A stretch of 11,731 nt of DNA from Candidatus Bipolaricaulia bacterium (GTDB lineage: Bacteria > Bipolaricaulota > Bipolaricaulia > JBHIAT01): contig JBHIAT010000120.1 in NCBI GenBank assembly GCA_046758705.1, positions 1 to 11,731 on the forward strand, written 5' to 3'. Position 1 is the first letter of the stretch. Each line of letters starts with the position of its first letter. Under the pieces are notes generated by a model that made no database searches, was not told the origin of the DNA, and saw only the letters and a program-made list of their open reading frames with translations. The position numbers and the translations under genes were made by a program. Shown in pieces: positions 1,249 through 11,106 of the stretch.

Positions 1249-2361
1249 CTATACCGCCTCCCTCCGATAGCCTTTCGGCAGGGTGAGTAGGTCGATCAGT
1301 GGGGTGAACATGTTCATGAGCAGTACGGCAAACAGGACGCCTTCTGCAAACCCGGTCAGCGCTCGAATCAATACGGTGAGTACACCGCAGCCGATCCCGA
1401 AGATCCACTTGCCCCGGCTGAGCATCGGATGGGTGACTGGATCGGTGAGCATGAAGAAAGCCGCGAGGAACACGCCGCCGGCCAGCATCTGGAACAGTGG
1501 GGGGGCGAACCTCTCCGGAGTCAGGATGTTAAGCCCCCAGGCGAGCAGGCCGACCGTCCCGATGTAGCTCAGCGGTACCCGCCAGTCGATGATCTTGGTG
1601 ACGATCAGCAAAATCCCACCCAACAGCAGCAACAGTGCCGAGGTCTCTCCAATCGACCCGGAGATGTTCCCCAAGAACATCTCTCGCAACGGGAAAGTCT
1701 CCGCTGTGGCCTTGAAGTTAATCAATGGGGTTGCCCGGCTAATCGCATCGGAGGAAATGGCATAGGTTCCAAACCCGGCAACGCCCCCGACCATCGGCTC
1801 CGCCCATCGGGTGGTCATCTCGACCGGGAACGAGATGAGCAGAAACGCCCGACCGACCAGTGCCGGGTTGAAGATGTTGTTCCCGGTTCCGCCAAAGATC
1901 TCCTTGCCCATCGCGACCCCGACGATGATTCCCAACGCCACCATCCATAGGGGGGTCGTCGGCGGCAGAGTGAGCGGGAACAGGATCCCGGTGACCAGAA
2001 GTCCCTCGGTGATGTCCTCTCCACGGACGTAGCTGAAGATCATCTCGGTGAGCCCGCCGACCGTATAAGAGACAGCCACGATCGCCAGCGCCCGCCAGCC
2101 GAAGAAGTAGATGCCTGCCAGCGTCGGTAGCATGAGCCCGATGATCGGCATCGACATGAACCGCTGCATCCCGATGTTGTCCCGCAGGTACGGGAAAGTA
2201 TCGGCGACCAGCTCGGTCCCGCCGAAGAGGAATCCCTCAGCACCCTTAACAAGCGGGGTTAACTTCTTTAATCGCTCGTCCGATTCCACCCGGTTGTTGA
2301 GGTTCTCGAACAACCGTTCAAGGCGCTCCTCGATCGCCCGAGATCTCTCTTGGTCGGCCAT
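1249..2361 (-). CDS. rnfD: Rnf subunit D (RnfD/NqrB family) membrane flavoprotein
   Basis: Polytopic protein with EGLLVTGILFPLTLPP, KEIFGGTGNNIFNPALVGRAFL, DAISRATPL (covalent FMN Thr), GSIGETS, FFMLTDPVT and EGVLFAVLLMNMFTPLID. Confidence 0.95.
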   Translation of the reverse strand: MADQERSRAIEERLERLFENLNNRVESDERLKKLTPLVKGAEGFLFGGTELVADTFPYLRDNIGMQRFMSMPIIGLMLPTLAGIYFFGWRALAIVAVSYTVGGLTEMIFSYVRGEDITEGLLVTGILFPLTLPPTTPLWMVALGIIVGVAMGKEIFGGTGNNIFNPALVGRAFLLISFPVEMTTRWAEPMVGGVAGFGTYAISSDAISRATPLINFKATAETFPLREMFLGNISGSIGETSALLLLLGGILLIVTKIIDWRVPLSYIGTVGLLAWGLNILTPERFAPPLFQMLAGGVFLAAFFMLTDPVTHPMLSRGKWIFGIGCGVLTVLIRALTGFAEGVLFAVLLMNMFTPLIDLLTLPKGYRREAV

Positions 2362-2425
2362 TGGTGCTCGCTATGCTCCCTTCTGGGTCAGGCGGTCAAA
2401 AACCAGAGTTCTTCAGTCCGCATTT

Positions 2426-2454
2426 ATATTAGTCCATCAACCCTCAAATGTCAA
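2426..2454 (-). promoter_or_regulatory. Putative internal sigma70 promoter upstream of rnfD
   Basis: Minus strand TTGACA (2454-2449), 17-bp spacer, TAATAT (2431-2426), in the 131-bp AT-richer rnfC-rnfD gap. Confidence 0.55.
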
Positions 2455-2492
2455 GCGATCCTATCATGAATCAGAAGGGCCTTATCGTCACT

Positions 2493-3935
2493 TTACTGCC
2501 CCTCCATCATCTGTCGTTCGAGCTTCTCCTTCCCTTCCTTGATCAACGCGGCCAGCGGGATCTTTGACGGACAGACGTAAGAGCAGAGCCCGCAGTCGAT
2601 GCAAGCGAAGATATTCAGATCCTGAGCCCGATCGAACATCTCGTGCTGTGCGTACCGGGCGAGGAAGATCGGCGAGATGTCCACCGGACAGACGTCGAAG
2701 CAATAACCACAGCGGACGCATTCTCGCGGTTCGCCGTGCAGACCGACATCCGCCTGTTTGGCTTTGTCGCCACCGGGGACCGGCGGAAACACTCCCGTAT
2801 AGGAGCTCCGATCGAACCCGGGTTTGACGAACGCCAGCAATTCCCGGGTCGGTCGCTTGAGCACGGTGACCGCCTGGGTATTCTTTAACACCGGTGCCTC
2901 CAGGCTCTCCTGCGCATGGCCTCGTATCGGTCCGCCGAGCAGAATCACCCCCACCTGTTCCTCGATCAACCGATCCGAAAGCAATGCTTTGAGCGGGGTC
3001 CCGACCCGCACCCAGAAGTTTCCTGTATGTTGTAATGCCGAGCCGCTGATCGAGGTCGTCCGTTCGACGAACGGCCGGCCCAAGATCACCGCATCATAGG
3101 CGGCAACCAAGTACTGTACATCGACGACGACGGCGCCGACGTCGGTGGTGTACCCCCGGGTCGGTTCGGTTGGCACGTAGAGATCGAGCAGCGTCCTGAG
3201 CAGTACGTCATCCTCCCCTTGAGGGTACTTGGGACGGAGCGGGTGGATATAAAACCAATCCAGATGTTGGATCCGAGTCTCAAGTTCCTCGATGATCCGG
3301 GGCTTGTTATAGCCGATCCCGACGTGAACCTCCACGTTGCCGAGCGCGGTGCGCATGATCCGGATCCCGGTGAAGAACTTTTCGAACTCCTCGTAGATGA
3401 GCTGGTCTTCGGCTTCGAGATACGGCTCGGTCTCGACCGCATTGATTACCAGATACTTCACATTGCCGGGCTCGGTTTGGGCGGAGTTGAACGGTGTAGG
3501 GAATCCGGTCCGCCCGATGTCGGTCACCCCGCCAAGGTACAACAGCTCACCGAGCTCCTCCTGGCTTTTGCGTTCGAATGCCCCCCCGGCTTCCGCCAAC
3601 GTCTCCCAGCTGTCCTCGCCGTCGGACTCGATCACCACCGCCGTTGCCTCTCCGCCCAGTGGGTGCGGCCGTTCCTCGATCTCGACCACCTCTCCTGAGA
3701 TGCTGGCGTGGATCGGCGTTGAAACGACTTCATCATCTCGACCGATGATCTGGCCTGTCTTCACCCGGTCGCCGACCTCCACCTGGGGTTTGACCGCCTC
3801 GCCGACCCCCGGCTTAAGAAAAACAGTCACCCGGTCGGGTGGGGGGAGGCGCTCCAGCCGTTCAAACCTTGGCGTCCCTTCATACAGGTCGAAGTAGTGT
3901 CCCCCTTTGAACGTCTTGAGTGTCTCTAAAGGCAT
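2493..3935 (-). CDS. rnfC: Rnf subunit C-like protein (RnfC/NqrA family) with two [4Fe-4S] motifs
   Basis: KTFKGG start, VGDRVKTGQ and PIHASISGEV (N-terminal domain), GFPT, INAVETEPY, KYPQG, VRVGTP, GGP, plus CVRCGYCFDVCP and CIDCGLCSYVCPSKIPL. Confidence 0.92.
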   Translation of the reverse strand: MPLETLKTFKGGHYFDLYEGTPRFERLERLPPPDRVTVFLKPGVGEAVKPQVEVGDRVKTGQIIGRDDEVVSTPIHASISGEVVEIEERPHPLGGEATAVVIESDGEDSWETLAEAGGAFERKSQEELGELLYLGGVTDIGRTGFPTPFNSAQTEPGNVKYLVINAVETEPYLEAEDQLIYEEFEKFFTGIRIMRTALGNVEVHVGIGYNKPRIIEELETRIQHLDWFYIHPLRPKYPQGEDDVLLRTLLDLYVPTEPTRGYTTDVGAVVVDVQYLVAAYDAVILGRPFVERTTSISGSALQHTGNFWVRVGTPLKALLSDRLIEEQVGVILLGGPIRGHAQESLEAPVLKNTQAVTVLKRPTRELLAFVKPGFDRSSYTGVFPPVPGGDKAKQADVGLHGEPRECVRCGYCFDVCPVDISPIFLARYAQHEMFDRAQDLNIFACIDCGLCSYVCPSKIPLAALIKEGKEKLERQMMEGQ

Positions 3936-3973
3936 TGACGGTTACCACTCTCTCTGCGAACGGAGGTTCAAGT

Positions 3974-4753
3974 TCAAGATCTGCGGGTGCCGACCGACTC
4001 CCGTTTCTGTTCCTTGCGCAACGGCTTGCTGAGGCCATCCGCGCGCACCCGCCAAATATGCAGGAAGATAAACAGCAACATGACGGCCGGGAACAGGATG
4101 ACATGAGTCACATAAAACCTGATCAGCGATGGTTGCCCCAACTCAGTCCCTCCGAACAGGGCAAATTTCGCCTGATCCCCGAAGAACGGCGTCGCTCCGG
4201 CAATGTTTGAGGCGATGCTCGCCGCCCAGTAGGCGAGCTGATCCCAGGGAAGCAGATACCCGGTGAAGCCCATGACATAGGTGAAGACGAACAGAAGTAC
4301 CCCGAGCACCCAGTTAAACTGACGGGGCTTCTGATAGGAGCCGGTGAAGAACACCCGGATCATGTGGATGGTGACGGTCACGACCATCAGGTTGGCCGAC
4401 CAGCGGTGCAGGTTCCGGGTGAATCGCCCCAGGGTGACGACGTTGCTGATCTCCAGGATGCTGTTGTAAGCGCGCTCCACCGAGGGGATATAGTAGAACA
4501 TCAGGAAGATCCCGGTCAACAGGGTGACGAAGTAAAGCCAGAGCGAGATCGCCCCCATGTACCAGGTATAAGAGAACGCCAACGCGCGCTTGCTCTCCCG
4601 AGCACCGACCCACCAAAGATGGACAAAGAAGTTCCGGCTGATCACCGAAATCCGCTCGGCGGTGGTACGCGGCAGATGGTCCCGTCTGAAGATCGACCGC
4701 CAGACCTCCGTCCGTCTCACATACTGGAACAGCAGCAGCAGCTTGTCGATCAT
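3974..4753 (-). CDS. Cytochrome b6-like protein (cytochrome b N-terminal domain, PetB/QcrB-like)
   Basis: TGIFLMFYYIPS..AYNS, RNLHRWSANLMV...HMIRVFFTGSY.KPRQFNW, FTGYLLPWDQLAYWA, RFYVTH...LHIWRVRADGLSKPL. Four heme-ligand His, with 14 residues between the helix-D pair (b6-type spacing). Confidence 0.93.
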   Translation of the reverse strand: MIDKLLLLFQYVRRTEVWRSIFRRDHLPRTTAERISVISRNFFVHLWWVGARESKRALAFSYTWYMGAISLWLYFVTLLTGIFLMFYYIPSVERAYNSILEISNVVTLGRFTRNLHRWSANLMVVTVTIHMIRVFFTGSYQKPRQFNWVLGVLLFVFTYVMGFTGYLLPWDQLAYWAASIASNIAGATPFFGDQAKFALFGGTELGQPSLIRFYVTHVILFPAVMLLFIFLHIWRVRADGLSKPLRKEQKRESVGTRRS

Positions 4754-4778
4754 CGTGTCATCGTTCGTCTACAGATCT

Positions 4779-5360
4779 CTAAATATCGACCGGCTCTCCT
4801 TGGTCGTTGATGTGCCTGCCGTCCGGGGTCAGGTAGATGTTGTGATCGATCCCCTTCCAGTAACTGCCTTTGTCGATCGACTTATCGACCAGCAGCCGGC
4901 CGTCGACCGCCAGCGTCATCAGGAAGAACGGCAGCGGCAGCGGCGCCGGCCCATTAATAACGGAGCCGTCCCGGGCGAACACGCTCCCGTGACACGGGCA
5001 TTCGAAACGCAATCTGGTTGAGCTCCACTTCGGCTTACAGCCCAGATGAGTACAAACGTTGGAGATCGCCTGGAATCCCAATTCAGCTCGAAAGACGAAG
5101 ACCCGTTGGTCCCCCATGTCTCCGATGTCCCCGATCTGAAAGTCGGAGGGCTGCCCCGCGGAAAAGATCGGCGAGGATTCAAAGGTGATGCTGGGGTAGA
5201 AGAGTCCGACACCCCAGGCTGTAACGGTCCCCAGAACCAACGTGAGCGATCCCAAACCGAGGCGGGCGAAGAACCGCCGGCGGGTGATCTGCTGGGCTTC
5301 CTTCGGGATACCTGAAAATAGCTCCGGCTGCTCCGGCCTTCTCTCTAGCTCGCTTCCCAC
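4779..5360 (-). CDS. Rieske [2Fe-2S] protein of Rieske/cytochrome b type (PetC/QcrA-like) with Tat anchor
   Basis: TRRRFF twin-arginine motif followed by a hydrophobic helix; CTHLGC and CPCHGS boxes; GPAPLPL loop. GTG start preceded by GAAGGAAGG. Confidence 0.93.
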   Translation of the reverse strand: MGSELERRPEQPELFSGIPKEAQQITRRRFFARLGLGSLTLVLGTVTAWGVGLFYPSITFESSPIFSAGQPSDFQIGDIGDMGDQRVFVFRAELGFQAISNVCTHLGCKPKWSSTRLRFECPCHGSVFARDGSVINGPAPLPLPFFLMTLAVDGRLLVDKSIDKGSYWKGIDHNIYLTPDGRHINDQGEPVDI

Positions 5361-5390
5361 ATCTGACCTTCCTTCTTCAGTACGTTGCCC

Positions 5391-5419
5391 ATTTTATGGA
5401 ACCGGATCGGATATGTCAA
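5391..5419 (-). promoter_or_regulatory. sigma70 promoter of the Rieske-cytb-rnf operon
   Basis: Minus strand TTGACA (5419-5414), 17 bp, TAAAAT (5396-5391), 30 bp upstream of the Rieske GTG. Confidence 0.75.
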
Positions 5420-5534
5420 GGATACAGATCGATCCGACTTTAGTTCGGCGTAGCTTTCCGTTTCTAAGTAATCCTCTTGACAAATTTATACAATCCAACC
5501 CCATTATACTATGACCGACGTCATTCCAAAATAT

Positions 5535-5549
5535 GATATGAATCATATC
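5535..5549. promoter_or_regulatory. Palindromic candidate operator GATATGA-A-TCATATC
   Basis: Perfect 7-1-7 inverted repeat in the AT-rich region between the divergent promoters. Confidence 0.4.
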
Positions 5550-5564
5550 TTGATTTGAGTTCCT

Positions 5565-5594
5565 TTGACAGGTGATCCGACGGTGAGCTATAGT
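5565..5594 (+). promoter_or_regulatory. sigma70 promoter of the aldehyde dehydrogenase gene
   Basis: TTGACA (5565-5570), 18 bp, TATAGT (5589-5594). Followed by a purine-rich RBS (GGAAGGAAGGAAAGGG) and ATG at 5639. Confidence 0.65.
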
Positions 5595-5648
5595 AATGTT
5601 AGAATTAGGGATCTGGAAGGAAGGAAAGGGAACTATTCATGGAGATTT

Positions 5649-5902
5649 GTGACGCTCCACGCACTAAAGTACGTGGCTTCTCGCTTCACAGACGGAACTT
5701 GCACAAGCAGAGGTTCTCGTCTCCACGCAGGCCGCGCCCGGCCTGGTACACACAGCATTTTAGTTTCTTTAGGCCAGGCTTGGTGGCGGTTAGCTTCTGT
5801 CTCGCTGAACCGCAAAACGCTGGCAAAATACACCTGGCTATACCCACAACGTTTTACGTTGCGCAGGGTTGTGGCAACAACCCCCTACGTTGTCAAAGAC
5901 CT
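5649..5902 (-). ncRNA. Putative TnpB omegaRNA (reRNA)-like structured RNA
   Basis: Lies downstream of an internal promoter, is rich in hairpins (5691-5721, 5786-5813, 5847-5861, 5866-5883) and ends exactly at the IS right end TCAC. The 5' end is estimated from the -10 position. Confidence 0.6.
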
Positions 5903-5908
5903 ATGGTG

Positions 5909-5937
5909 GTTATACCACATGCAGGAGGGGAAGTCAA
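5909..5937 (-). promoter_or_regulatory. sigma70 promoter inside the IS element
   Basis: Minus strand TTGACT (5937-5932), 17 bp, TATAAC (5914-5909), just inside the left-end hairpin. Confidence 0.7.
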
Positions 5938-5987
5938 GGGCGGCTGTATCCGCGCACTAAAAGTACGCGGTTTTAGCCGCTGAAAGA

Positions 5988-7463
5988 ATGAATAAGAATC
6001 TGATCGGTGGCCAATGGGTTGAGGCCGAGGGAGGGGGTACGTTCGAGTCACGCAATCCGGCTGACACCTCCGACCTGATCGGGGTATTTCCCGACTCCGA
6101 CAAACACGATGTCGCGCGGGCGGTGGCGGCGGCCGACGAGGCATTTTTCGATTGGAAGCAGTTTCCAGCCCCCAGGCGGGCGGAGATCCTGTTTGAAGCT
6201 GCCGAGGTGCTGAAGCGGAAGAAAGAGGAGCTCTCGAAGTTGATGACCCGGGAGATGGGCAAGGTGCTCAACGAGGCGCGCGGCGATGTCCAGGAGGGGG
6301 TCGACATGACTTACTACATCGCCGGGGAGGGCCGTCGGCTTCACGGCTACACCACCAAAGCCGAACTTCCCAACAAGGCGACGTACGCGCGCCGAGAGCC
6401 GATCGGCCGCATCGCTGTCATAACCCCGTGGAATTTCCCGCTGGCGATTCCCACCTGGAAGCTGATGCCGGCACTGGTGGCCGGCAACACGGTCGTGTGG
6501 AAACCGGCCACAGACACGCCCCGTCTCGCATACGAACTGGCGGTGTTGCTCCAGGAGGCCGGACTCCCGGACGGGGTGCTCAACGTCGTCTTCGGCCACG
6601 GCAAGCGTGTCGGCCAACCGCTCGTCGAGCACGAAAAGATCGATATGCTCACGTTTACCGGATCGACCGAAGTCGGCAGACACCTGTACCGGGTTGCGGC
6701 GGACAAACTGAACGTGGTGCATCTGGAGATGGGCGGCAAAAATCCGCTCATCGTCATGGACGATGCCGACCTCGACCTGGCGCTGGACGGGATCATTTGG
6801 GGCGCGTTCGGGACGACCGGACAGCGCTGCACCGCCGCCAGCCGAATCATCGTTCACAAAGGGGTCATCGGCGAAGTGATCGAACGGCTCGTCACCGCCA
6901 CTAAACAGCTCAAGGTCGGAAACGGCCTCGACGAGGAGATCGACGTGGGACCGGTCATCAACAAGGCCCAGCTGGATACGATTCACCACTATGTTGAGAT
7001 CGGTCAACAGGGGGGAGCTGAGCTCCTGTGCGGCGGTCGAGTCCTCGACTCGGGGTCCTACGTGAACGGTTACTTCTACGAGCCGACGGTGTTCGCTGGC
7101 GTCACCCCGGAGATGAGGATCTTCAAGGAGGAAATCTTCGGGCCGGTCGCGGTGGTGGTAGAAGCTCAAGACTACGAGGATGCGATCCGGATCGCCAACA
7201 ACACCGACTACGGTCTGTCGTCGGCGATCTACACCCGGGACGTCAACCTGGCGCATCGGGCGATGGACGATCTGGAGGCGGGAATCGTCTATATCAACAG
7301 CAGCACGATCGGTGCCGAGATCCATCTGCCGTTCGGCGGGGTCAAGGGAACCGGGAACGGGCATCGGGAGGCGGGTCAGGCTGCGCTCGAGACCTACACC
7401 GAGTGGAAGGCAGTGTATATCGACTACAGCGGCAGACTCCAGAAGGCCCAGGGGATCGAATAG
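5988..7463 (+). CDS. NAD(P)-dependent aldehyde dehydrogenase family protein (original start probably 5639, interrupted by IS element)
   Basis: ITPWNFP, WKPA, FTGSTEVG, LEMGGKN (catalytic Glu), GQRCTA (catalytic Cys), EEIFGPV, LPFGGVK. Substrate cannot be assigned. Confidence 0.95.
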   Translation: MNKNLIGGQWVEAEGGGTFESRNPADTSDLIGVFPDSDKHDVARAVAAADEAFFDWKQFPAPRRAEILFEAAEVLKRKKEELSKLMTREMGKVLNEARGDVQEGVDMTYYIAGEGRRLHGYTTKAELPNKATYARREPIGRIAVITPWNFPLAIPTWKLMPALVAGNTVVWKPATDTPRLAYELAVLLQEAGLPDGVLNVVFGHGKRVGQPLVEHEKIDMLTFTGSTEVGRHLYRVAADKLNVVHLEMGGKNPLIVMDDADLDLALDGIIWGAFGTTGQRCTAASRIIVHKGVIGEVIERLVTATKQLKVGNGLDEEIDVGPVINKAQLDTIHHYVEIGQQGGAELLCGGRVLDSGSYVNGYFYEPTVFAGVTPEMRIFKEEIFGPVAVVVEAQDYEDAIRIANNTDYGLSSAIYTRDVNLAHRAMDDLEAGIVYINSSTIGAEIHLPFGGVKGTGNGHREAGQAALETYTEWKAVYIDYSGRLQKAQGIE

Positions 7464-7582: not shown

Positions 7583-9595
7583 ATGAGGCACAAAGTGATT
7601 GTTTCCATAAGTCTGGTCGTGGCATTAGTACTAGCGGCATCCGGTCCAGCCGAATCACAACCCAGGCGTTCATATGCGGGCACAACGCCCGCTCCGGAGT
7701 TTCCAATCGGTCTGGATTGGCTCAACACTGATCGACCACTCACCCTTGAGCAACTCAAAGGCAAGGTGGTGCTTCTAGATTTCTGGACTTACGGGTGCAT
7801 CAATTGTATGCACATCATTCCAGAGTTAAAGCAGTTGGAGGAAGAGTATCGCAATGAGCTAGTGGTGATTGGCGTTCACTCCGCTAAGTTCACCAACGAA
7901 GGGGATACCGACAACATCCGCCAGATTATTCTTCGCTACGGATTGGAACATCCCGTCGTCAACGACCGGAACTTTTTGCTATGGCGCATGTGGGGCGCGC
8001 GCGCCTGGCCCACCCTGGTCCTGATTGACCCGGCAGGCAACGTCGTCGGCGGACACATGGGCGAAGGCATTTATCCGATCTTCAAGCCGGTGATCGAATC
8101 ATTGGTGCAGGAGTTTGAGGCCAAGGGCATACTGGATCGTACGCCGTTGGGCCTCAAGCTGGAAAAAGAGGGCTTGCCCGAAACCGTGCTATCATTCCCC
8201 GGCAAGATTCTGGCCGATGCAGACGGCGGTCGCCTGTTCATCGCTGATACCAACCACAACCGGATCGTCATCGCTGATATTGACAGTGGTGACGTATTCA
8301 ACCTGATTGGCAGCGGGGAGCGTGGTTTTGACGATGGTGATTTCCGCACAGCAACCTTTTCTCAGCCGCAAGGGATAGCGCTTTCGGAAGACGGTCGCAC
8401 GCTCTATGTCGCCGATACCGAAAATCACGCTGTGCGTCAGATGGACTTGGTGAACGAAGCGGTGACGACGCTGGTCGGCACCGGTTTCCAGGCACGTATG
8501 TATCCACCAGTATTTGGCTCGGCTCCGAATGTCGCGTTGAACTCCCCATGGGATCTGGAGTTGGATGGCCATCTGCTTTACATTGCTATGGCCGGCTCCC
8601 ATCAAATTTGGGTTGTCAATCTGTCGACAGGAGTGACTCTACCGTTTGTCGGCAACGGCCGCGAGAGCACGCTTAACGGTCCTCGAGACCGGGCGGAGTT
8701 GGCGCAGCCCAGCGGCTTGGCGCTGGATGGCCAGGGCCGACTGTACTTCGCCGACTCCGAGAGCAGTTCGATTCGCTGGGCGGAGACCGATCCGGAGAAC
8801 GGCGAGACCGGCAGCCTGGTCGGCAGCACGAGCAGCTTGTTTCAGTTTGGCGATGTGGATGGTGTGGGTGTCGAGGCTCGCCTACAGCACCCGCTAGGCG
8901 TGGTCTATCACGAGGGTGTGCTCTATGTCGCTGATACCTACAACAGCAAGATCAAGCGCGTTGTCCCTGAGACGCGAGAGATTCAAACATTCATGGGCAG
9001 CGAGCATGGCTGGCGAGACGGTACCGATCCGCTGTTCTACGAGCCCGGTGGTATCGATGTGGCTAACGACAAACTCTATGTGGCCGACACGAACAATCAT
9101 GTGGTGCGGGTCATTGAACTGGACACCCAGGAAACCCGCACGCTGATACTCAAAGGCATCGAGCGCTTCATGGCCTCGCCGGATGACGAAGGCTTCGGCG
9201 GTAAGATCGTGCTCGTTGATCCCATTGAGGTTGGAGTCGGCAGGGGCAAGGTGCTGATTTATATAGCGTTTCCCGACGGCTATAAGGTCAACGATGAGGC
9301 TCCCAATTCGATGGCGTGGGAGGTTGATGGCGACGTGGTCGTGCTGCCTTCCGATGCGAACCGTTCCATCGTGGCCCCCAGCTTCCCGCTGGAACTGGAT
9401 GTCACCTTCAAGCAGGGTGAAGGCCAGCTGACTGGCGACCTGAACATCTTCTACTGCGAGGTGGAAAAGGAAAGCATCTGCCTGATTGAGCGAGTGCGAT
9501 TGGAAGCGCCGATCAAGGTCAAGGACAACGGGGACGACATCTTGAAGCTGAGCCATAGCATCGAGCTCCCGGAGATTGATACGCAAGCACCGTGA
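7583..9595 (+). CDS. Thioredoxin-like + NHL-repeat beta-propeller protein (NHLRC2/SOQ1-like) with signal peptide
   Basis: N-terminal MRHK + hydrophobic stretch; LLDFWTYGCINC, VIGVHSAKF, RAWPTLVLIDP; repeated L(Y/F)(V/I)ADTxNH motifs, LNSPWDL, LAQPSGL, LQHPLGV; C-terminal beta-rich domain with FYC...SIC. Confidence 0.92.
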   Translation: MRHKVIVSISLVVALVLAASGPAESQPRRSYAGTTPAPEFPIGLDWLNTDRPLTLEQLKGKVVLLDFWTYGCINCMHIIPELKQLEEEYRNELVVIGVHSAKFTNEGDTDNIRQIILRYGLEHPVVNDRNFLLWRMWGARAWPTLVLIDPAGNVVGGHMGEGIYPIFKPVIESLVQEFEAKGILDRTPLGLKLEKEGLPETVLSFPGKILADADGGRLFIADTNHNRIVIADIDSGDVFNLIGSGERGFDDGDFRTATFSQPQGIALSEDGRTLYVADTENHAVRQMDLVNEAVTTLVGTGFQARMYPPVFGSAPNVALNSPWDLELDGHLLYIAMAGSHQIWVVNLSTGVTLPFVGNGRESTLNGPRDRAELAQPSGLALDGQGRLYFADSESSSIRWAETDPENGETGSLVGSTSSLFQFGDVDGVGVEARLQHPLGVVYHEGVLYVADTYNSKIKRVVPETREIQTFMGSEHGWRDGTDPLFYEPGGIDVANDKLYVADTNNHVVRVIELDTQETRTLILKGIERFMASPDDEGFGGKIVLVDPIEVGVGRGKVLIYIAFPDGYKVNDEAPNSMAWEVDGDVVVLPSDANRSIVAPSFPLELDVTFKQGEGQLTGDLNIFYCEVEKESICLIERVRLEAPIKVKDNGDDILKLSHSIELPEIDTQAP

Positions 9596-9605
9596 CTCAT
9601 TCCAC

Positions 9606-10661
9606 CTAATGCTCTAGCTCTATGCCCAACTCGCTGCCCAGTTCCTCTAGCTCAGCATATAGCTCTTGGCTCAGCGGAATCCCGTGTTTCAGGCGCTCGC
9701 GCTCCGTCCTTGCCTCAGGCTCCCCTGGAAGAAAGACTTCATCAAACTCCTCTGCCGGTGGGATCGACTTGATCTCACGGATCATCTGATCGACTCGCTG
9801 CTTAAATTCGTCTGCGGGCAGATAGCTGGCGATATCGATCGCGCCGACAAAGTGCCCGATCGCCTGAGGTTCGGAGAAGTTGTCGTACATGCGGTTGATG
9901 TGGACACCGAAGGCTGATCCGGTCAGCAGGGCGGAGAGAATGTCAATGATCACCGCCAGGCCGTAGCCCTTCGACCCTCCCAGGGGACGAACCGCTCGAG
10001 CTTTCTTGGGATCGGTGATGGGATTCCCTTCCGTGTCCACCGCCCAATCTTCGGGGATCTCGCGCCCCTCCTGTGCCGCTACCATGACCTTGCCCATGGC
10101 GACCCCGCTGGTGGCCATATCCAGAACAATAGGTAACTCATCTTTGGCGGGAACGGCTATCGCGAGGGGATTTGTCCCGAGGACAGGTTTTTTACCGCCG
10201 AAGGGGATCATATCGGCCTCGGCGTGAGTGAGGGCGAGGCCGATCATATCGTCCTCCAGGGCCCTCATGGCGAAGTAGGCCGCGGTTCCGAAGTGGTTGC
10301 TGTTCTTGATCGCAACAAATCCCACGCCTGCCTCCTTGGCGATTGGGATCGCTTCGTCCATCGCTCGTAGCGCGACCAGTTGTCCTGGCCCATTTCCCCC
10401 ATCCAAGATCGCCGTGGCAGGTGCGGTTCGCGTCAGCCTCATCTCAGGCTGGGTCACGATCAACCCCATCCGCATTCGCTTGACATAGATGCCCAGGCGC
10501 ATCACTCCATGGCTGTCCACACCGCGAAGGTTGGCCTTAACCAGGGAATCCGACACAATTTCGGCATTCTCCGGCGAAAGTTCGGCCTTGATCAGCACCT
10601 CACGACAGAAATCTTTGAGTTTTTCCGCTCTTACTTTAAGTACATCGTTATTTTCATTCAT
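9606..10661 (-). CDS. Ldh_2 family (malate/L-lactate/ureidoglycolate) dehydrogenase, AllD-like
   Basis: ANLRGVDSHG, NSNHFG, PFGG...GTNPLA, LDMATS, KGYGL, LPGEPE. Start placed at ATG 10661 (or 10664), overlapping the upstream stop and following AGGAAG. Confidence 0.9.
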   Translation of the reverse strand: MNENNDVLKVRAEKLKDFCREVLIKAELSPENAEIVSDSLVKANLRGVDSHGVMRLGIYVKRMRMGLIVTQPEMRLTRTAPATAILDGGNGPGQLVALRAMDEAIPIAKEAGVGFVAIKNSNHFGTAAYFAMRALEDDMIGLALTHAEADMIPFGGKKPVLGTNPLAIAVPAKDELPIVLDMATSGVAMGKVMVAAQEGREIPEDWAVDTEGNPITDPKKARAVRPLGGSKGYGLAVIIDILSALLTGSAFGVHINRMYDNFSEPQAIGHFVGAIDIASYLPADEFKQRVDQMIREIKSIPPAEEFDEVFLPGEPEARTERERLKHGIPLSQELYAELEELGSELGIELEH

Positions 10662-11106
10662 CATCTTCCTGATCTTCGGGCTCGGAGTCAAGCACCGCGA
10701 TCGCCTCGACTTCGATGAGCATCTTGGGGTCCACTAGGCCTTGGACCTCGACCATCGTGAGCGCCGGTCGGATCTCCCCGAAGAACTCTGCGTGGGCGCG
10801 CCCGTACTCTCGCCAGCGTGAGATGTCTGTGACGTAGAAACGCGTGCAGACGACGTGGCGTCGGGCAGCTCTCGCCTGGTGGAGAGCCCATTTGACCTTC
10901 TCCAACGCATAGCGGGTCTGCGCATAGGCATCCCCTTCACCGACTACACGCCCCTCGGCATCAGAGGCAGTCGTCCCGGCGACGTACACCGTATCTCGAA
11001 CACGTACCGCCCGTGAGTAGCCCACAATCGGCTCCCAGGGCGCCGCCGATGAGATGCGTAGCCGCTCCACTGCCCCGGTCTCCTGCCCTGTATTCGGCGG
11101 TTTCAT
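10654..11106 (-). CDS. Rid (YjgF/YER057c/UK114) family protein
   Basis: WEPIVGYSRAVRV, VAGTTA, AHAEFFGEIRPALTMVEV, LIEVEA. Start at ATG 11106 after AGGAAGGAG (alternative start 11124). Confidence 0.9.
   Translation of the reverse strand: MKPPNTGQETGAVERLRISSAAPWEPIVGYSRAVRVRDTVYVAGTTASDAEGRVVGEGDAYAQTRYALEKVKWALHQARAARRHVVCTRFYVTDISRWREYGRAHAEFFGEIRPALTMVEVQGLVDPKMLIEVEAIAVLDSEPEDQEDDE

Follow-up and report, generated by a model that had tools for sequence, protein, structure and literature searches.

A recently inserted PATE in codon 4 of an ALDH gene from a Candidatus Bipolaricaulia bacterium, with a new in-frame ATG at the element's end

The ALDH gene and its severed start

The window, by which we mean the whole 11,731-nt stretch of contig JBHIAT010000120.1 that was analysed, carries on its plus strand an aldehyde dehydrogenase (ALDH) gene whose present reading frame in the ORF list runs from 5988 to 7463 and specifies a product of 491 aa beginning MNKNLIGG. 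The frame is intact, with residues 10-476 of the product matching positions 1-461 of the 461 positions of the Pfam family Aldedh (PF00171) at an E-value of 3.4e-180, and the product can be aligned to ten orthologues of 63-69% identity from residue 2 or 3 through to residue 491. The best relatives of the ALDH were 67% identical in genome_contigs and 69% identical in metagenome_contigs, and no near-identical locus was found in either of these collections, from which records of the genome's own may be left out.

The ATG of the present frame and the first base of its second codon are derived from an inserted element, and the original start is found upstream of it. A sigma-70-like site, TTGACA-18-TATAGT at 5565..5594 of the plus strand (11/12 matches in the promoter scan), is the likely native ALDH promoter, and a TATAAT-like box is found at a similar distance from the ATG in the orthologues; the scan returned three promoter-like sites in the region, the expectation being 0.7. 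Reading on along the plus strand, there follow a purine-rich Shine-Dalgarno-like tract (5615..5632) and the original start, ATG GAG ATT T (5639..5648), which is now cut off from its gene, the next base, 5649, being the first of the element. The insert splits codon 4 of the gene, TAT, into T|AT. This split, which had been proposed in a preliminary description of the locus, agrees with the N-termini of the orthologues, since all ten begin M/V-x-[Y/F]-K-N with an ATG directly after a Shine-Dalgarno motif and two codons upstream of the Y/F, and the rejoined allele would read M-E-I-Y-K-N.

A young insertion with a known empty allele

Bases 5649-5991 (343 nt) make up one copy of a repeat that encodes no protein and is of the IS200/IS605 type, a PATE (palindrome-associated transposable element), for which 24 BLAST matches, the copy itself included, are found in its own genome. 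The edge at 5649 is sharp and common to 20 listed ends, all of which begin GTGAC and continue into unrelated flanks, while the edge at 5991 is followed by ATAA in all ten complete copies as well as in a copy at the edge of contig C2. On the minus strand this ATAA reads TTAT (5992..5995), and as judged from both the copies and the empty allele it is host sequence that serves as target and transposon-adjacent motif, with the insert lying directly 3' of it and without any duplication of the target.

The limits 5649-5991 had been predicted from the sequence of the window, and the junction expected of an empty allele, 5648 joined to 5992, is indeed found in nature. The junction data are Logan contigs from four sequencing runs of a single study (X1-X4), of which X1 is possibly the source of the assembly. 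In run X4 a contig of 560 nt (record 25, depth 5.8) covers 5426-5648 and 5992-6328 and skips exactly the 343 bases, with no letters extra or missing and no ambiguity at the joint, giving a rejoined start that reads MEIYKNL. It differs from the filled allele in 12 letters of the 560 flanking positions and is thus from a strain about 2% different. The filled allele is represented by contigs that cross the left junction (5176-5677 in X1, 5000-5677 in X2 and X3) and the right junction (from 5966 onward in X1 and X2), extending 26-29 nt into the element. We can conclude that the insertion is polymorphic, being present in three samples and exactly absent from the strain of approximately 98% identity in the fourth. 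Since an almost identical full copy is found on contig C45 (99% identity, 4 mismatches in 351 aligned bases) and the empty allele still exists in so close a relative, the insertion is young, and 5649-5991 is accordingly a recently inserted non-autonomous IS200/IS605-family PATE inside codon 4 of the ALDH gene.

Anatomy and affiliation of the element

The element's own strand is the minus strand of the window, with the left end (LE) at 5991 and the right end (RE) at 5649, and on comparison of the repeat copies it falls in a group that we term subfamily A. At the RE, a subterminal hairpin CCACG...CGTGG (5657..5676, minus strand) is followed by a terminal motif ...GCGTCAC ending at 5649, and RE-like ends of the same hairpin design occur 23 times in the genome, those of subfamily B with a compensatory change to CCCCG/CGGGG. 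At the LE, an inverted repeat (I1; 5940..5980, minus strand) forms a nested subterminal hairpin, as predicted by folding and by comparison with the LE of a tnpB-bearing IS on contig C185, and on the plus-strand mRNA this hairpin would fold just upstream of the new ATG. The hairpins are also apparent as direct repeats (D2/D3, at 5656-5679 and 5949-5973), so that both ends carry a subterminal palindrome on the same strand, and inverted terminal repeats are absent. The element has no coding capacity, its minus-strand frames being full of stops, and a blastx search against all genome frames of at least 60 aa returned only other copies of the repeat and no remnant of TnpB. No Rfam family reaches its gathering score anywhere in the window, and with the threshold relaxed to E <= 10 the interval 5560-6080 gives only a chance-level match to the eL15 leader (14.9 bits, where the gathering score is 33.7).

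The ends of the element are related to those of complete IS copies in the same genome. In the C185 IS, which specifies a 393-aa TnpB with HTH_OrfB_IS605, OrfB_IS605 and Cas12f1-like_TNB domains, TTAT adjoins an LE of the same architecture as that of the PATE, and its RE ends ...GAGTGTCAC. Furthermore, the final ~105-110 nt of the element can be aligned with the RE regions of the tnpB-bearing copies on C274 and C185. The genome contains 23 matches to the TnpB zinc ribbon and 6 to Y1 TnpA, 4 of the latter with long open frames; Y1 TnpA genes are located on C207, C27, C257 and C204. Of these, the IS copies with TnpA on C207 and C27 have the ...TCAC motif in common with the element, and that on C207 also TTAT, but their hairpins differ. 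In this family a Y1 TnpA acts on the hairpins of an element and matches DNA guides inside it to the transposon-adjacent and terminal motifs. With its palindromes, fixed TTAT motif, IS-homologous ends and lack of both target duplication and gene, the element has, as far as sequence can tell, the characteristics of a non-autonomous PATE of the IS200/IS605 family, in agreement with the earlier attribution to elements moved by a Y1 TnpA, for which scarless excision is the expected chemistry, the donor joint of this IS family being scarless (10.1101/2023.03.14.532601).

The name PATE was introduced for elements of Haloquadratum walsbyi (PMC3119063), and such elements are also noted in Geobacillus stearothermophilus, in a study according to which PATEs often encode guide RNAs on which TnpB must act in trans (10.1101/2023.03.14.532601). 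Like those described in the two papers, the present element has no room for a transposase, no inverted terminal repeats, similar near-terminal palindromes and no target duplication, its ends are related to tnpB-bearing IS copies of its own genome and its insertions are strain-specific (PMC3119063; 10.1101/2023.03.14.532601). The motif adjoining the LE is used by TnpA and TnpB alike, and as in ISGst2 the insertion is located 3' of a 4-5 nt motif beside the LE, here TTAT and in ISGst2 TTTAT (10.1101/2023.03.14.532601). The present copy would likewise have in common with the elements of that study a scarless donor joint, a guide RNA that extends through the RE into the flank, and a nuclease target composed of the transposon-adjacent motif and the flank of the empty site, but unlike them it has neither tnpA nor tnpB inside, and both would be needed in trans. 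It also differs from known PATEs in that its LE promoter is separated from the last ~110 nt at the RE by a module of ~150 nt unrelated to tnpB, although the supplements of the papers may show comparable interiors. The case leaves what is known of the IS200/IS605 family unchanged.

An internal promoter-like site and a putative guide-like RNA

Within the element a site resembling a promoter, TTGACT-17-TATAAC with TG ahead of the second hexamer, can be read by eye at 5909..5937 of the minus strand. It was not listed by the promoter scan, whose rule calls for a final T where this hexamer ends in C, whereas the homologous site of subfamily B (TGGACT-17-TATAAT, likewise with TG) was listed, and the site is kept in four subfamilies. 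It is directed at the RE and, beyond this, at the ALDH leader, and faces the ALDH promoter. Transcription from it would produce an RNA of ~250 nt ending in the RE and reading into the flank, and the last ~110 nt of this RNA (5649..5758, minus strand, as delimited by global alignment to the tnpB copies on C274 and C185) would be homologous to the guide-RNA region of the genome's own tnpB copies, presumably corresponding to the 3' part of the omegaRNA scaffold. By the position rule for TnpB guides, the would-be guide is the RE-side flank at 5629..5648 of the minus strand, which is complementary to the spacer and the former start codon of the gene, and the read-out RNA would accordingly be antisense to the gene's former ribosome-binding site and ATG. 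With TnpB supplied in trans, the RNA would furthermore direct cleavage of the restored allele, where TTAT is again joined to the flank, and such cleavage would favour retention of the element over reversion.

Structure prediction for the RNA gives 79 pairs, of which 10 show compensatory changes among five copies. The likeness to a guide scaffold is limited to the last ~110 nt, since the preceding ~150 nt bear no relation to the 3' coding part of tnpB (z <= 2.2); when the 190 nt upstream were globally aligned with the 3' regions of tnpB genes, z against shuffles ranged from -0.19 to 2.2. This internal module has a conserved core of ~65 nt (5837..5901, minus strand), which is common to PATE subfamilies with different ends and to the PATE-like copies of a second genome of the phylum, G152. 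A 66-column alignment of the core allows two alternative helices, with 0 and 1 pairs changed on both sides, which is not above shuffles. It is conceivable, if improbable in our estimation, that the element is not just a decayed IS but a mobile promoter-driven RNA cassette, in which a module of ~65-150 nt replaces the tnpB-overlapping half of the guide scaffold and yields a hitch-hiking guide or regulatory RNA of a new type. If so, each insertion would give rise to an antisense or RNA-guided regulator specific to its locus, the read-out tail of which pairs with whatever neighbours the insertion, in this case the spacer of the ribosome-binding site and the start codon in the ALDH mRNA.

Translation of the ALDH gene from the filled allele

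With the element in place, the old ATG at 5639 opens a junk frame of 114 codons that passes through the element on the plus strand (5639..5983) and ends at the TGA 5981..5983; no Pfam family was found for its product. Four bases (5984-5987) separate this stop from the ATG at 5988, which is built from the terminal ...ATGA of the element and the target ATAA and reads ATG AAT AAG in the ALDH frame. Both the read-through and the in-frame ATG had been described previously and are evident from the sequence and the ORF list alike. Such a donated ATG is nonetheless not a conserved trait across the group, since ATGA is found at the end of subfamily A alone, other ends being ...GATA (subfamily B), ...AGGT (the copy on C106) and ...TTCT (the C185 IS). 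Moreover, of the two frames permitted for an insertion in this orientation, one gives an in-frame ATG. Taken together, these two observations suggest that the new start codon arose incidentally from the end sequence of subfamily A and is not an adaptation.

In bacterial operons, translation may be coupled by termination and reinitiation, where a well-initiated upstream frame ends a few bases before the next start. The TGA a few bases ahead of ATG 5988 resembles this arrangement, but unlike in operon coupling the upstream frame has arisen by accident, as 114 codons read through the element, and the start is composed of element end and target. According to the predicted fold, ATG 5988 is located in a single-stranded A/U-rich stretch just after the LE hairpin. 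Re-initiation at 5988 is plausible, and translation of the ALDH may continue, most probably through coupling of termination to reinitiation at this unstructured site. Its level would probably be reduced, because the message must cross a structured insert of 343 nt against the converging promoter inside the element, and whether a useful amount of enzyme would be made from the filled allele appears about an even question. The near-silent insertion that had been suggested earlier is thus a possibility; a search for RNA runs containing 5200-6500 returned none.

Alternatively, the filled allele may be null or strongly hypomorphic, the gene having been cut from its ribosome-binding site and its transcription blocked or opposed, with the in-frame ATG a coincidence and the frame intact only because the event is recent. 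We consider the chance of this to be somewhat short of even. The intact frame is indeed uninformative on function because the insertion is young, and both signs of youth, the C45 copy and the empty allele of the related strain, are in keeping with a null allele, as are the failure of other subfamilies to keep the ATG in their ends, the converging promoter, the poor Shine-Dalgarno spacing before 5988 (GAAAGA ends 1 nt upstream) and the presence in the genome of a second ALDH, a paralogue of 40% identity on contig C149. However, a stop followed after 4 nt by a start, behind a well-initiated frame, is the classical layout of coupling, the start is in an unstructured A/U-rich stretch, and a scan of 5350-6100 revealed no terminator-like site, all of which is in poorer agreement with a null allele.

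Excision and the remaining alternatives

A reversible switch, in which TnpA excises the element scarlessly at a useful frequency, MEIYKNL is restored and both states are kept in the population, had also been suggested for this locus. The suggestion fits the chemistry of the family, with which a lacZ switch going from off to on by excision has been built (10.1101/2023.03.14.532601), it is compatible with the presence of Y1 TnpA genes in the genome, and both alleles do occur in nature. The empty allele, however, with its 12 differences in 560 flanking positions, represents another lineage and not an excision product of the filled one, and no skip joint was found among the contigs of the three filled-allele samples X1-X3, bearing in mind that contigs drop rare variants. 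Furthermore, the candidate TnpA copies on C207 and C27 carry different hairpins, and the element's own read-out RNA would be expected to guide TnpB to the restored site. We therefore regard a switch as unlikely. An assembly artefact, by which the repeat was mis-joined into the ALDH gene, might be suspected in an assembly fragmented into 319 contigs, many of which break at this repeat, but is highly improbable given that contigs of three runs cross the left junction and those of two the right, even though a single study supplied all of the runs and the assembly itself possibly derives from X1. That nothing was inserted and the gene natively starts MNKNL, for which there is the open frame from 5988 and nothing beyond, can be dismissed, since the sequence is a multi-copy repeat with sharp ends, a contig without exactly these 343 bases exists and all ten orthologues have Y/F and not N before K-N, with an ATG two codons upstream after a Shine-Dalgarno motif.

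The best explanation of the locus as a whole, which we hold with considerable confidence, is thus a young PATE insertion followed by an intact ALDH frame restarted at 5988, together with the above interpretations concerning translation, the by-product nature of the ATG and the guide-like RNA. The locus provides a clean natural case, with both alleles known, of a gene-less IS200/IS605 derivative that remodels the beginning of a metabolic gene, in an uncultured bacterium from a hydrothermal vent, as the insertion has swapped the N-terminus and placed a junk frame ahead of the gene, and a putative converging promoter and locus-specific guide-like RNA over the translation start. It may consequently serve as a test bed for how much expression outlasts such insertions by way of translational coupling, and for whether protein-less PATEs feed guide RNAs to TnpB in trans and thereby lock insertions in place.

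Other copies and other genomes

The idea that copies of the element might generally sit near gene starts is not supported, as only two of the ten complete copies are found within the first four codons of a gene, one being the ALDH copy and the other that in a tnpB gene on C65. Four others are located 5-61 nt after the stop of an upstream ORF (C279, C183, C85 and C42), two are inside other open frames (C63 and C106), one is in a degraded SDR remnant (C80), and the C45 copy is in a promoter-like TATAAT box. The incomplete copy at the edge of C2 is 27 nt upstream of the ATG of a SIS-domain gene.

Among 184 genomes of the phylum the element has matches in three, its own genome included. One of the other two, G132, has a single match of 26 nt, while G152 has three matches of ~70 nt in PATE-like copies; neither tnpB nor Y1 tnpA was found in G152, which gave no match to PF07282 or PF01797 but is a genome only 85% complete. 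A 17-nt core motif gave one hit in viral_contigs, which shows no surrounding similarity and is attributed to chance. Across two families belonging to a single bacterial class, the internal module shows ~90% conservation.

The element and its insertion in the ALDH gene

The character of the sequence changes at 5649, and the stretch 5649-5991 has 24 matches in the genome to which the window belongs (3.7 Mb, 319 contigs), among them a full copy on contig C45 that matches all but 4 of 351 aligned bases (98.86% identity), six mutually identical copies of a subfamily B that share 89% identity over 270 nt with the window element, and more distant copies on C106 and C244, further copies being contig-edge fragments. 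GTGAC opens 20 of 20 listed ends at the position equivalent to 5649, the flanks being unrelated. The opposite end finishes in ...GAATGA in subfamily A, that of the window element, and in ...CCGATA in subfamily B, and the next four bases are ATAA in all ten complete copies and in one edge copy. Similar hairpins are found near both ends on the same strand, and there are no terminal inverted repeats. Combined with a constant four-base motif that adjoins just one of the ends, these two properties make up an IS200/IS605 signature, from which it follows that the element's own strand is the window minus strand, with the left end (LE) at 5991 adjoining TTAT and the right end (RE) at 5649 finishing in ...GCGTCAC. 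PATEs are defined by lacking inverted terminal repeats, having near-terminal palindromes, causing no target duplication and being too short for a transposase (PMC3119063), and the window element is alike in all these defining features, i.e. ends, palindromes, target and size. By this published definition it is a PATE, and a new one of the known IS200/IS605 family.

A near-identical ALDH locus was not found in two assembly collections, where the best identities were 67% and 69%, and the locus is present in four hydrothermal-vent metagenome runs of one study (X1-X4), the first of which is possibly the source of the assembly. Logan contigs of these runs were compared with window 5000-6700. Contigs of X1-X3 span the left junction as far as 5677 in the element, those of X1 and X2 also pass from its interior (from 5966) into the ALDH gene, and a 560-nt contig of X4 (depth 5.8) covers 5426-5648 and then directly 5992-6328, skipping the 343 bases GT..GA with an unambiguous joint. 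This contig shows that the element is bounded at 5649-5991, just as the preliminary description had proposed, that the ATAA is host sequence and that no target duplication took place. It has 12 differences from the window, and of those listed none falls in 5618-5648 or 5992-6139; its origin is therefore a related strain about 2% different rather than excision within the same lineage. The insertion is young and polymorphic.

A search of 41 genomes gave ten ALDH orthologues with 63-69% identity, which belong to other families of the same class and all begin M(or V)-x-[Y/F]-K-N-[W/Y/F]-I with a GGAGG-like motif directly upstream. The rejoined allele begins M-E-I-Y-K-N-L-I and the present one M-N-K-N-L-I, and since the rejoined N-terminus fits all ten orthologues, the conserved TAT codon is, judging from this comparison, split by the insertion as T/AT, which bears out the earlier claim of an insertion in codon 4. 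That the gene might natively start with MNKNL is ruled out by the rejoined allele and by the orthologues, none of which starts in this way.

Possible expression of the interrupted gene

The original start, ATG GAG ATT T, is found at 5639-5648 on the plus strand behind a purine-rich tract (5615-5632) and a promoter-like site, TTGACA-18-TATAGT (5565-5594), with 11 of 12 matches in a promoter scan that gave three such sites in the region, where 0.7 were expected. Apparently the ALDH gene stands by itself, with a promoter of its own. An ORF listing confirmed exactly the earlier reading of an ATG at 5639, a 114-codon frame (5639..5983) ending with TGA 5981-5983 and an ATG at 5988, four bases further on, where the ALDH frame restarts, so that the replacement in-frame ATG is likewise real. 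The 491-codon frame from this ATG (5988..7463) encodes a full-length aldehyde dehydrogenase, its residues 10-476 matching positions 1-461 of the 461-position Pfam Aldedh profile (E 3.4e-180). As to the neighbours, divergent genes for a Rieske protein, cytochrome b and RnfC- and RnfD-like proteins are found upstream (1249-5360, minus strand), and downstream (7583-10691) follow genes for a 670-aa thioredoxin-like/NHL-repeat protein and, on the minus strand, an Ldh_2 family dehydrogenase.

With the element in place, the native promoter, ribosome-binding tract and ATG lead into the 114-codon frame, whose product has no Pfam family. Ribosomes finishing one frame can re-initiate at a nearby downstream start, which is known as translational coupling, and those ending the 114-codon junk frame may in this manner re-initiate at 5988. 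The new ATG is predicted to be unpaired, in A/U-rich sequence that directly follows the LE hairpin, and a scan of 5350-6100 found no terminator-like sites. The yield would likely suffer from the absence of a well-spaced Shine-Dalgarno, from the 343-nt structured insert, from a converging promoter and from an antisense tail over the old start, and the chances that the allele with the element gives enzyme in useful amounts seem about even. The in-frame ATG is on these sequence grounds no evidence of adaptation, since subfamily A is the only one to finish in ATGA and since the layout is a one-in-two outcome once the element has inserted into a gene in this orientation: the ATAA target is possible in only two frames of a gene on this strand, because the third would hold an in-frame TAA, and one of the two always gives both an open junk frame and an in-frame ATG. 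The value of the ALDH insertion lies in having both alleles in hand and in its compact, testable layout.

Protein-coding relatives and a presumed guide-like RNA

The genome has 23 TnpB zinc-ribbon domain matches and six Y1 transposase (TnpA) matches; its IS200/IS605-type load is heavy, and many of the 319 contigs break at such repeats. An IS on C185 has the layout TTAT, an adjoining LE built like that of the element, a promoter, tnpB (product of 393 aa with domains HTH_OrfB_IS605, OrfB_IS605 and Cas12f1-like_TNB) and an RE finishing ...GAGTGTCAC. REs of this design number 23 in the genome, and five of them are found behind tnpB genes (C5, C54, C184, C185 and C274). A good alignment was obtained between the element's final ~105-110 nt and the sequence that follows tnpB on C274 and C185, but not for the ~150 nt before them (z -0.19 to 2.2 versus shuffles), and no TnpB remnant was found in the element by blastx. 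TnpA-bearing copies on C207 and C27 finish in ...TCAC, and that on C207 also adjoins TTAT, but the hairpins of both differ from those of the element and neither is therefore assigned as its mobilising TnpA.

Just inside LE and directed to RE is a promoter-like site, TTGACT-17-TATAAC with TG before the second hexamer (5937-5909, minus strand), which was recognized by eye, the scan rule rejecting the final C. In subfamily B the homologous site reads TGGACT-17-TATAAT with TG and was detected by the scan, and the site is kept in four subfamilies despite diverged surroundings. From here to RE a stretch of ~255 nt folds better than shuffles (z -2.8), and when five copies are aligned, 10 of its 79 predicted pairs show compensatory changes. 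An RNA ending at RE and reading into the flank is the nuclease guide RNA of tnpB-bearing relatives, the motif adjoining LE is the nuclease recognition motif, and PATEs are said often to encode guide RNAs for use in trans (10.1101/2023.03.14.532601). Homology to a tnpB-linked scaffold extends over just half of the presumed one. By analogy, the tail read out of the element would be complementary to 5629-5648, i.e. the ALDH spacer and old start codon, and the nuclease target, TTAT plus the 5629-5648 flank, would be exactly the restored allele, which we infer to be what a guide-like RNA of the element targets.

The preliminary description also raised the possibility of a reversible expression switch by scarless excision. 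Such excision is indeed the chemistry of the family, and an off-to-on lacZ switch working by excision has been built (10.1101/2023.03.14.532601), but a switch is improbable here, since the empty allele belongs to another lineage, since no skip joint is present in the contigs of X1-X3, even if contigs would miss rare variants, and since the presumed guide-like RNA of the element may itself oppose reversion.

A conserved internal module

Within the ~150-nt interior lies a core of ~65 nt (5837-5901, minus strand), found in 12 assembled copies of six subfamilies (e.g. locus L004 1690-1754, minus strand; L009 1051-1115; L010 131-195; L012 1426-1490; L013 1483-1547), including copies on C159 and C144 with other ends. 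Another genome, G152, from a different family of the class, has the core in four PATE-like copies (L231 1560-1624; L232 1662-1726, minus strand; L233 672-736; L234 704-768, minus strand), and in it, at 85% completeness, neither tnpB nor a Y1 tnpA was found. Conservation of the core is ~90%, both across PATE subfamilies that differ in their ends and between the two genomes, and its alignment has a mean column identity of 88% with 41 of 66 columns invariant. The core gave no Rfam match, its alignment no significant covariation, and no consistent reading frame was found in it.

Insertion sites of other copies

Whether other copies sit near gene starts had been suggested as a check, and no such rule emerged, since just two of the ten complete copies interrupt a gene in one of its first four codons, namely the ALDH insertion and, in codon 3 of a tnpB on C65, a copy of subfamily B. 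The other eight are found shortly past stop codons, in a promoter-like TATAAT box, in a degraded SDR remnant and in other open frames, and an A/T-only target in a G+C-richer genome suffices to explain a drift towards gene borders.

The C65 copy (~136-456; L006) splits the tnpB as ATG GCT A/AT AAC in the same gene-relative orientation as in ALDH and is an IS200/IS605 derivative nested in the nuclease gene of a relative. The 99% identical sister copy on C45 (21801-22143; L002) splits a promoter-like site, TTGACA followed after ~16-17 nt by a TATAAT-like box containing the ATAA target. A subfamily-A LE at the edge of C2 (L015 ~1477-1554) precedes the ATG of a SIS-domain gene (248 aa, PF13580, E 5.5e-38) by 27 nt, just before its AAGGAGG motif, and the matching RE at the start of C273 may be the other half of this copy. 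Finally, a 149-nt internally deleted subfamily-A copy on C80 (9201-9349; L011) is found in a degraded short-chain dehydrogenase remnant, of which only profile positions 1-40 and 197-223 were found, in two different frames, and the internal joint of this copy (window 5759 to 5954) recurs in contigs of X1 and X3.
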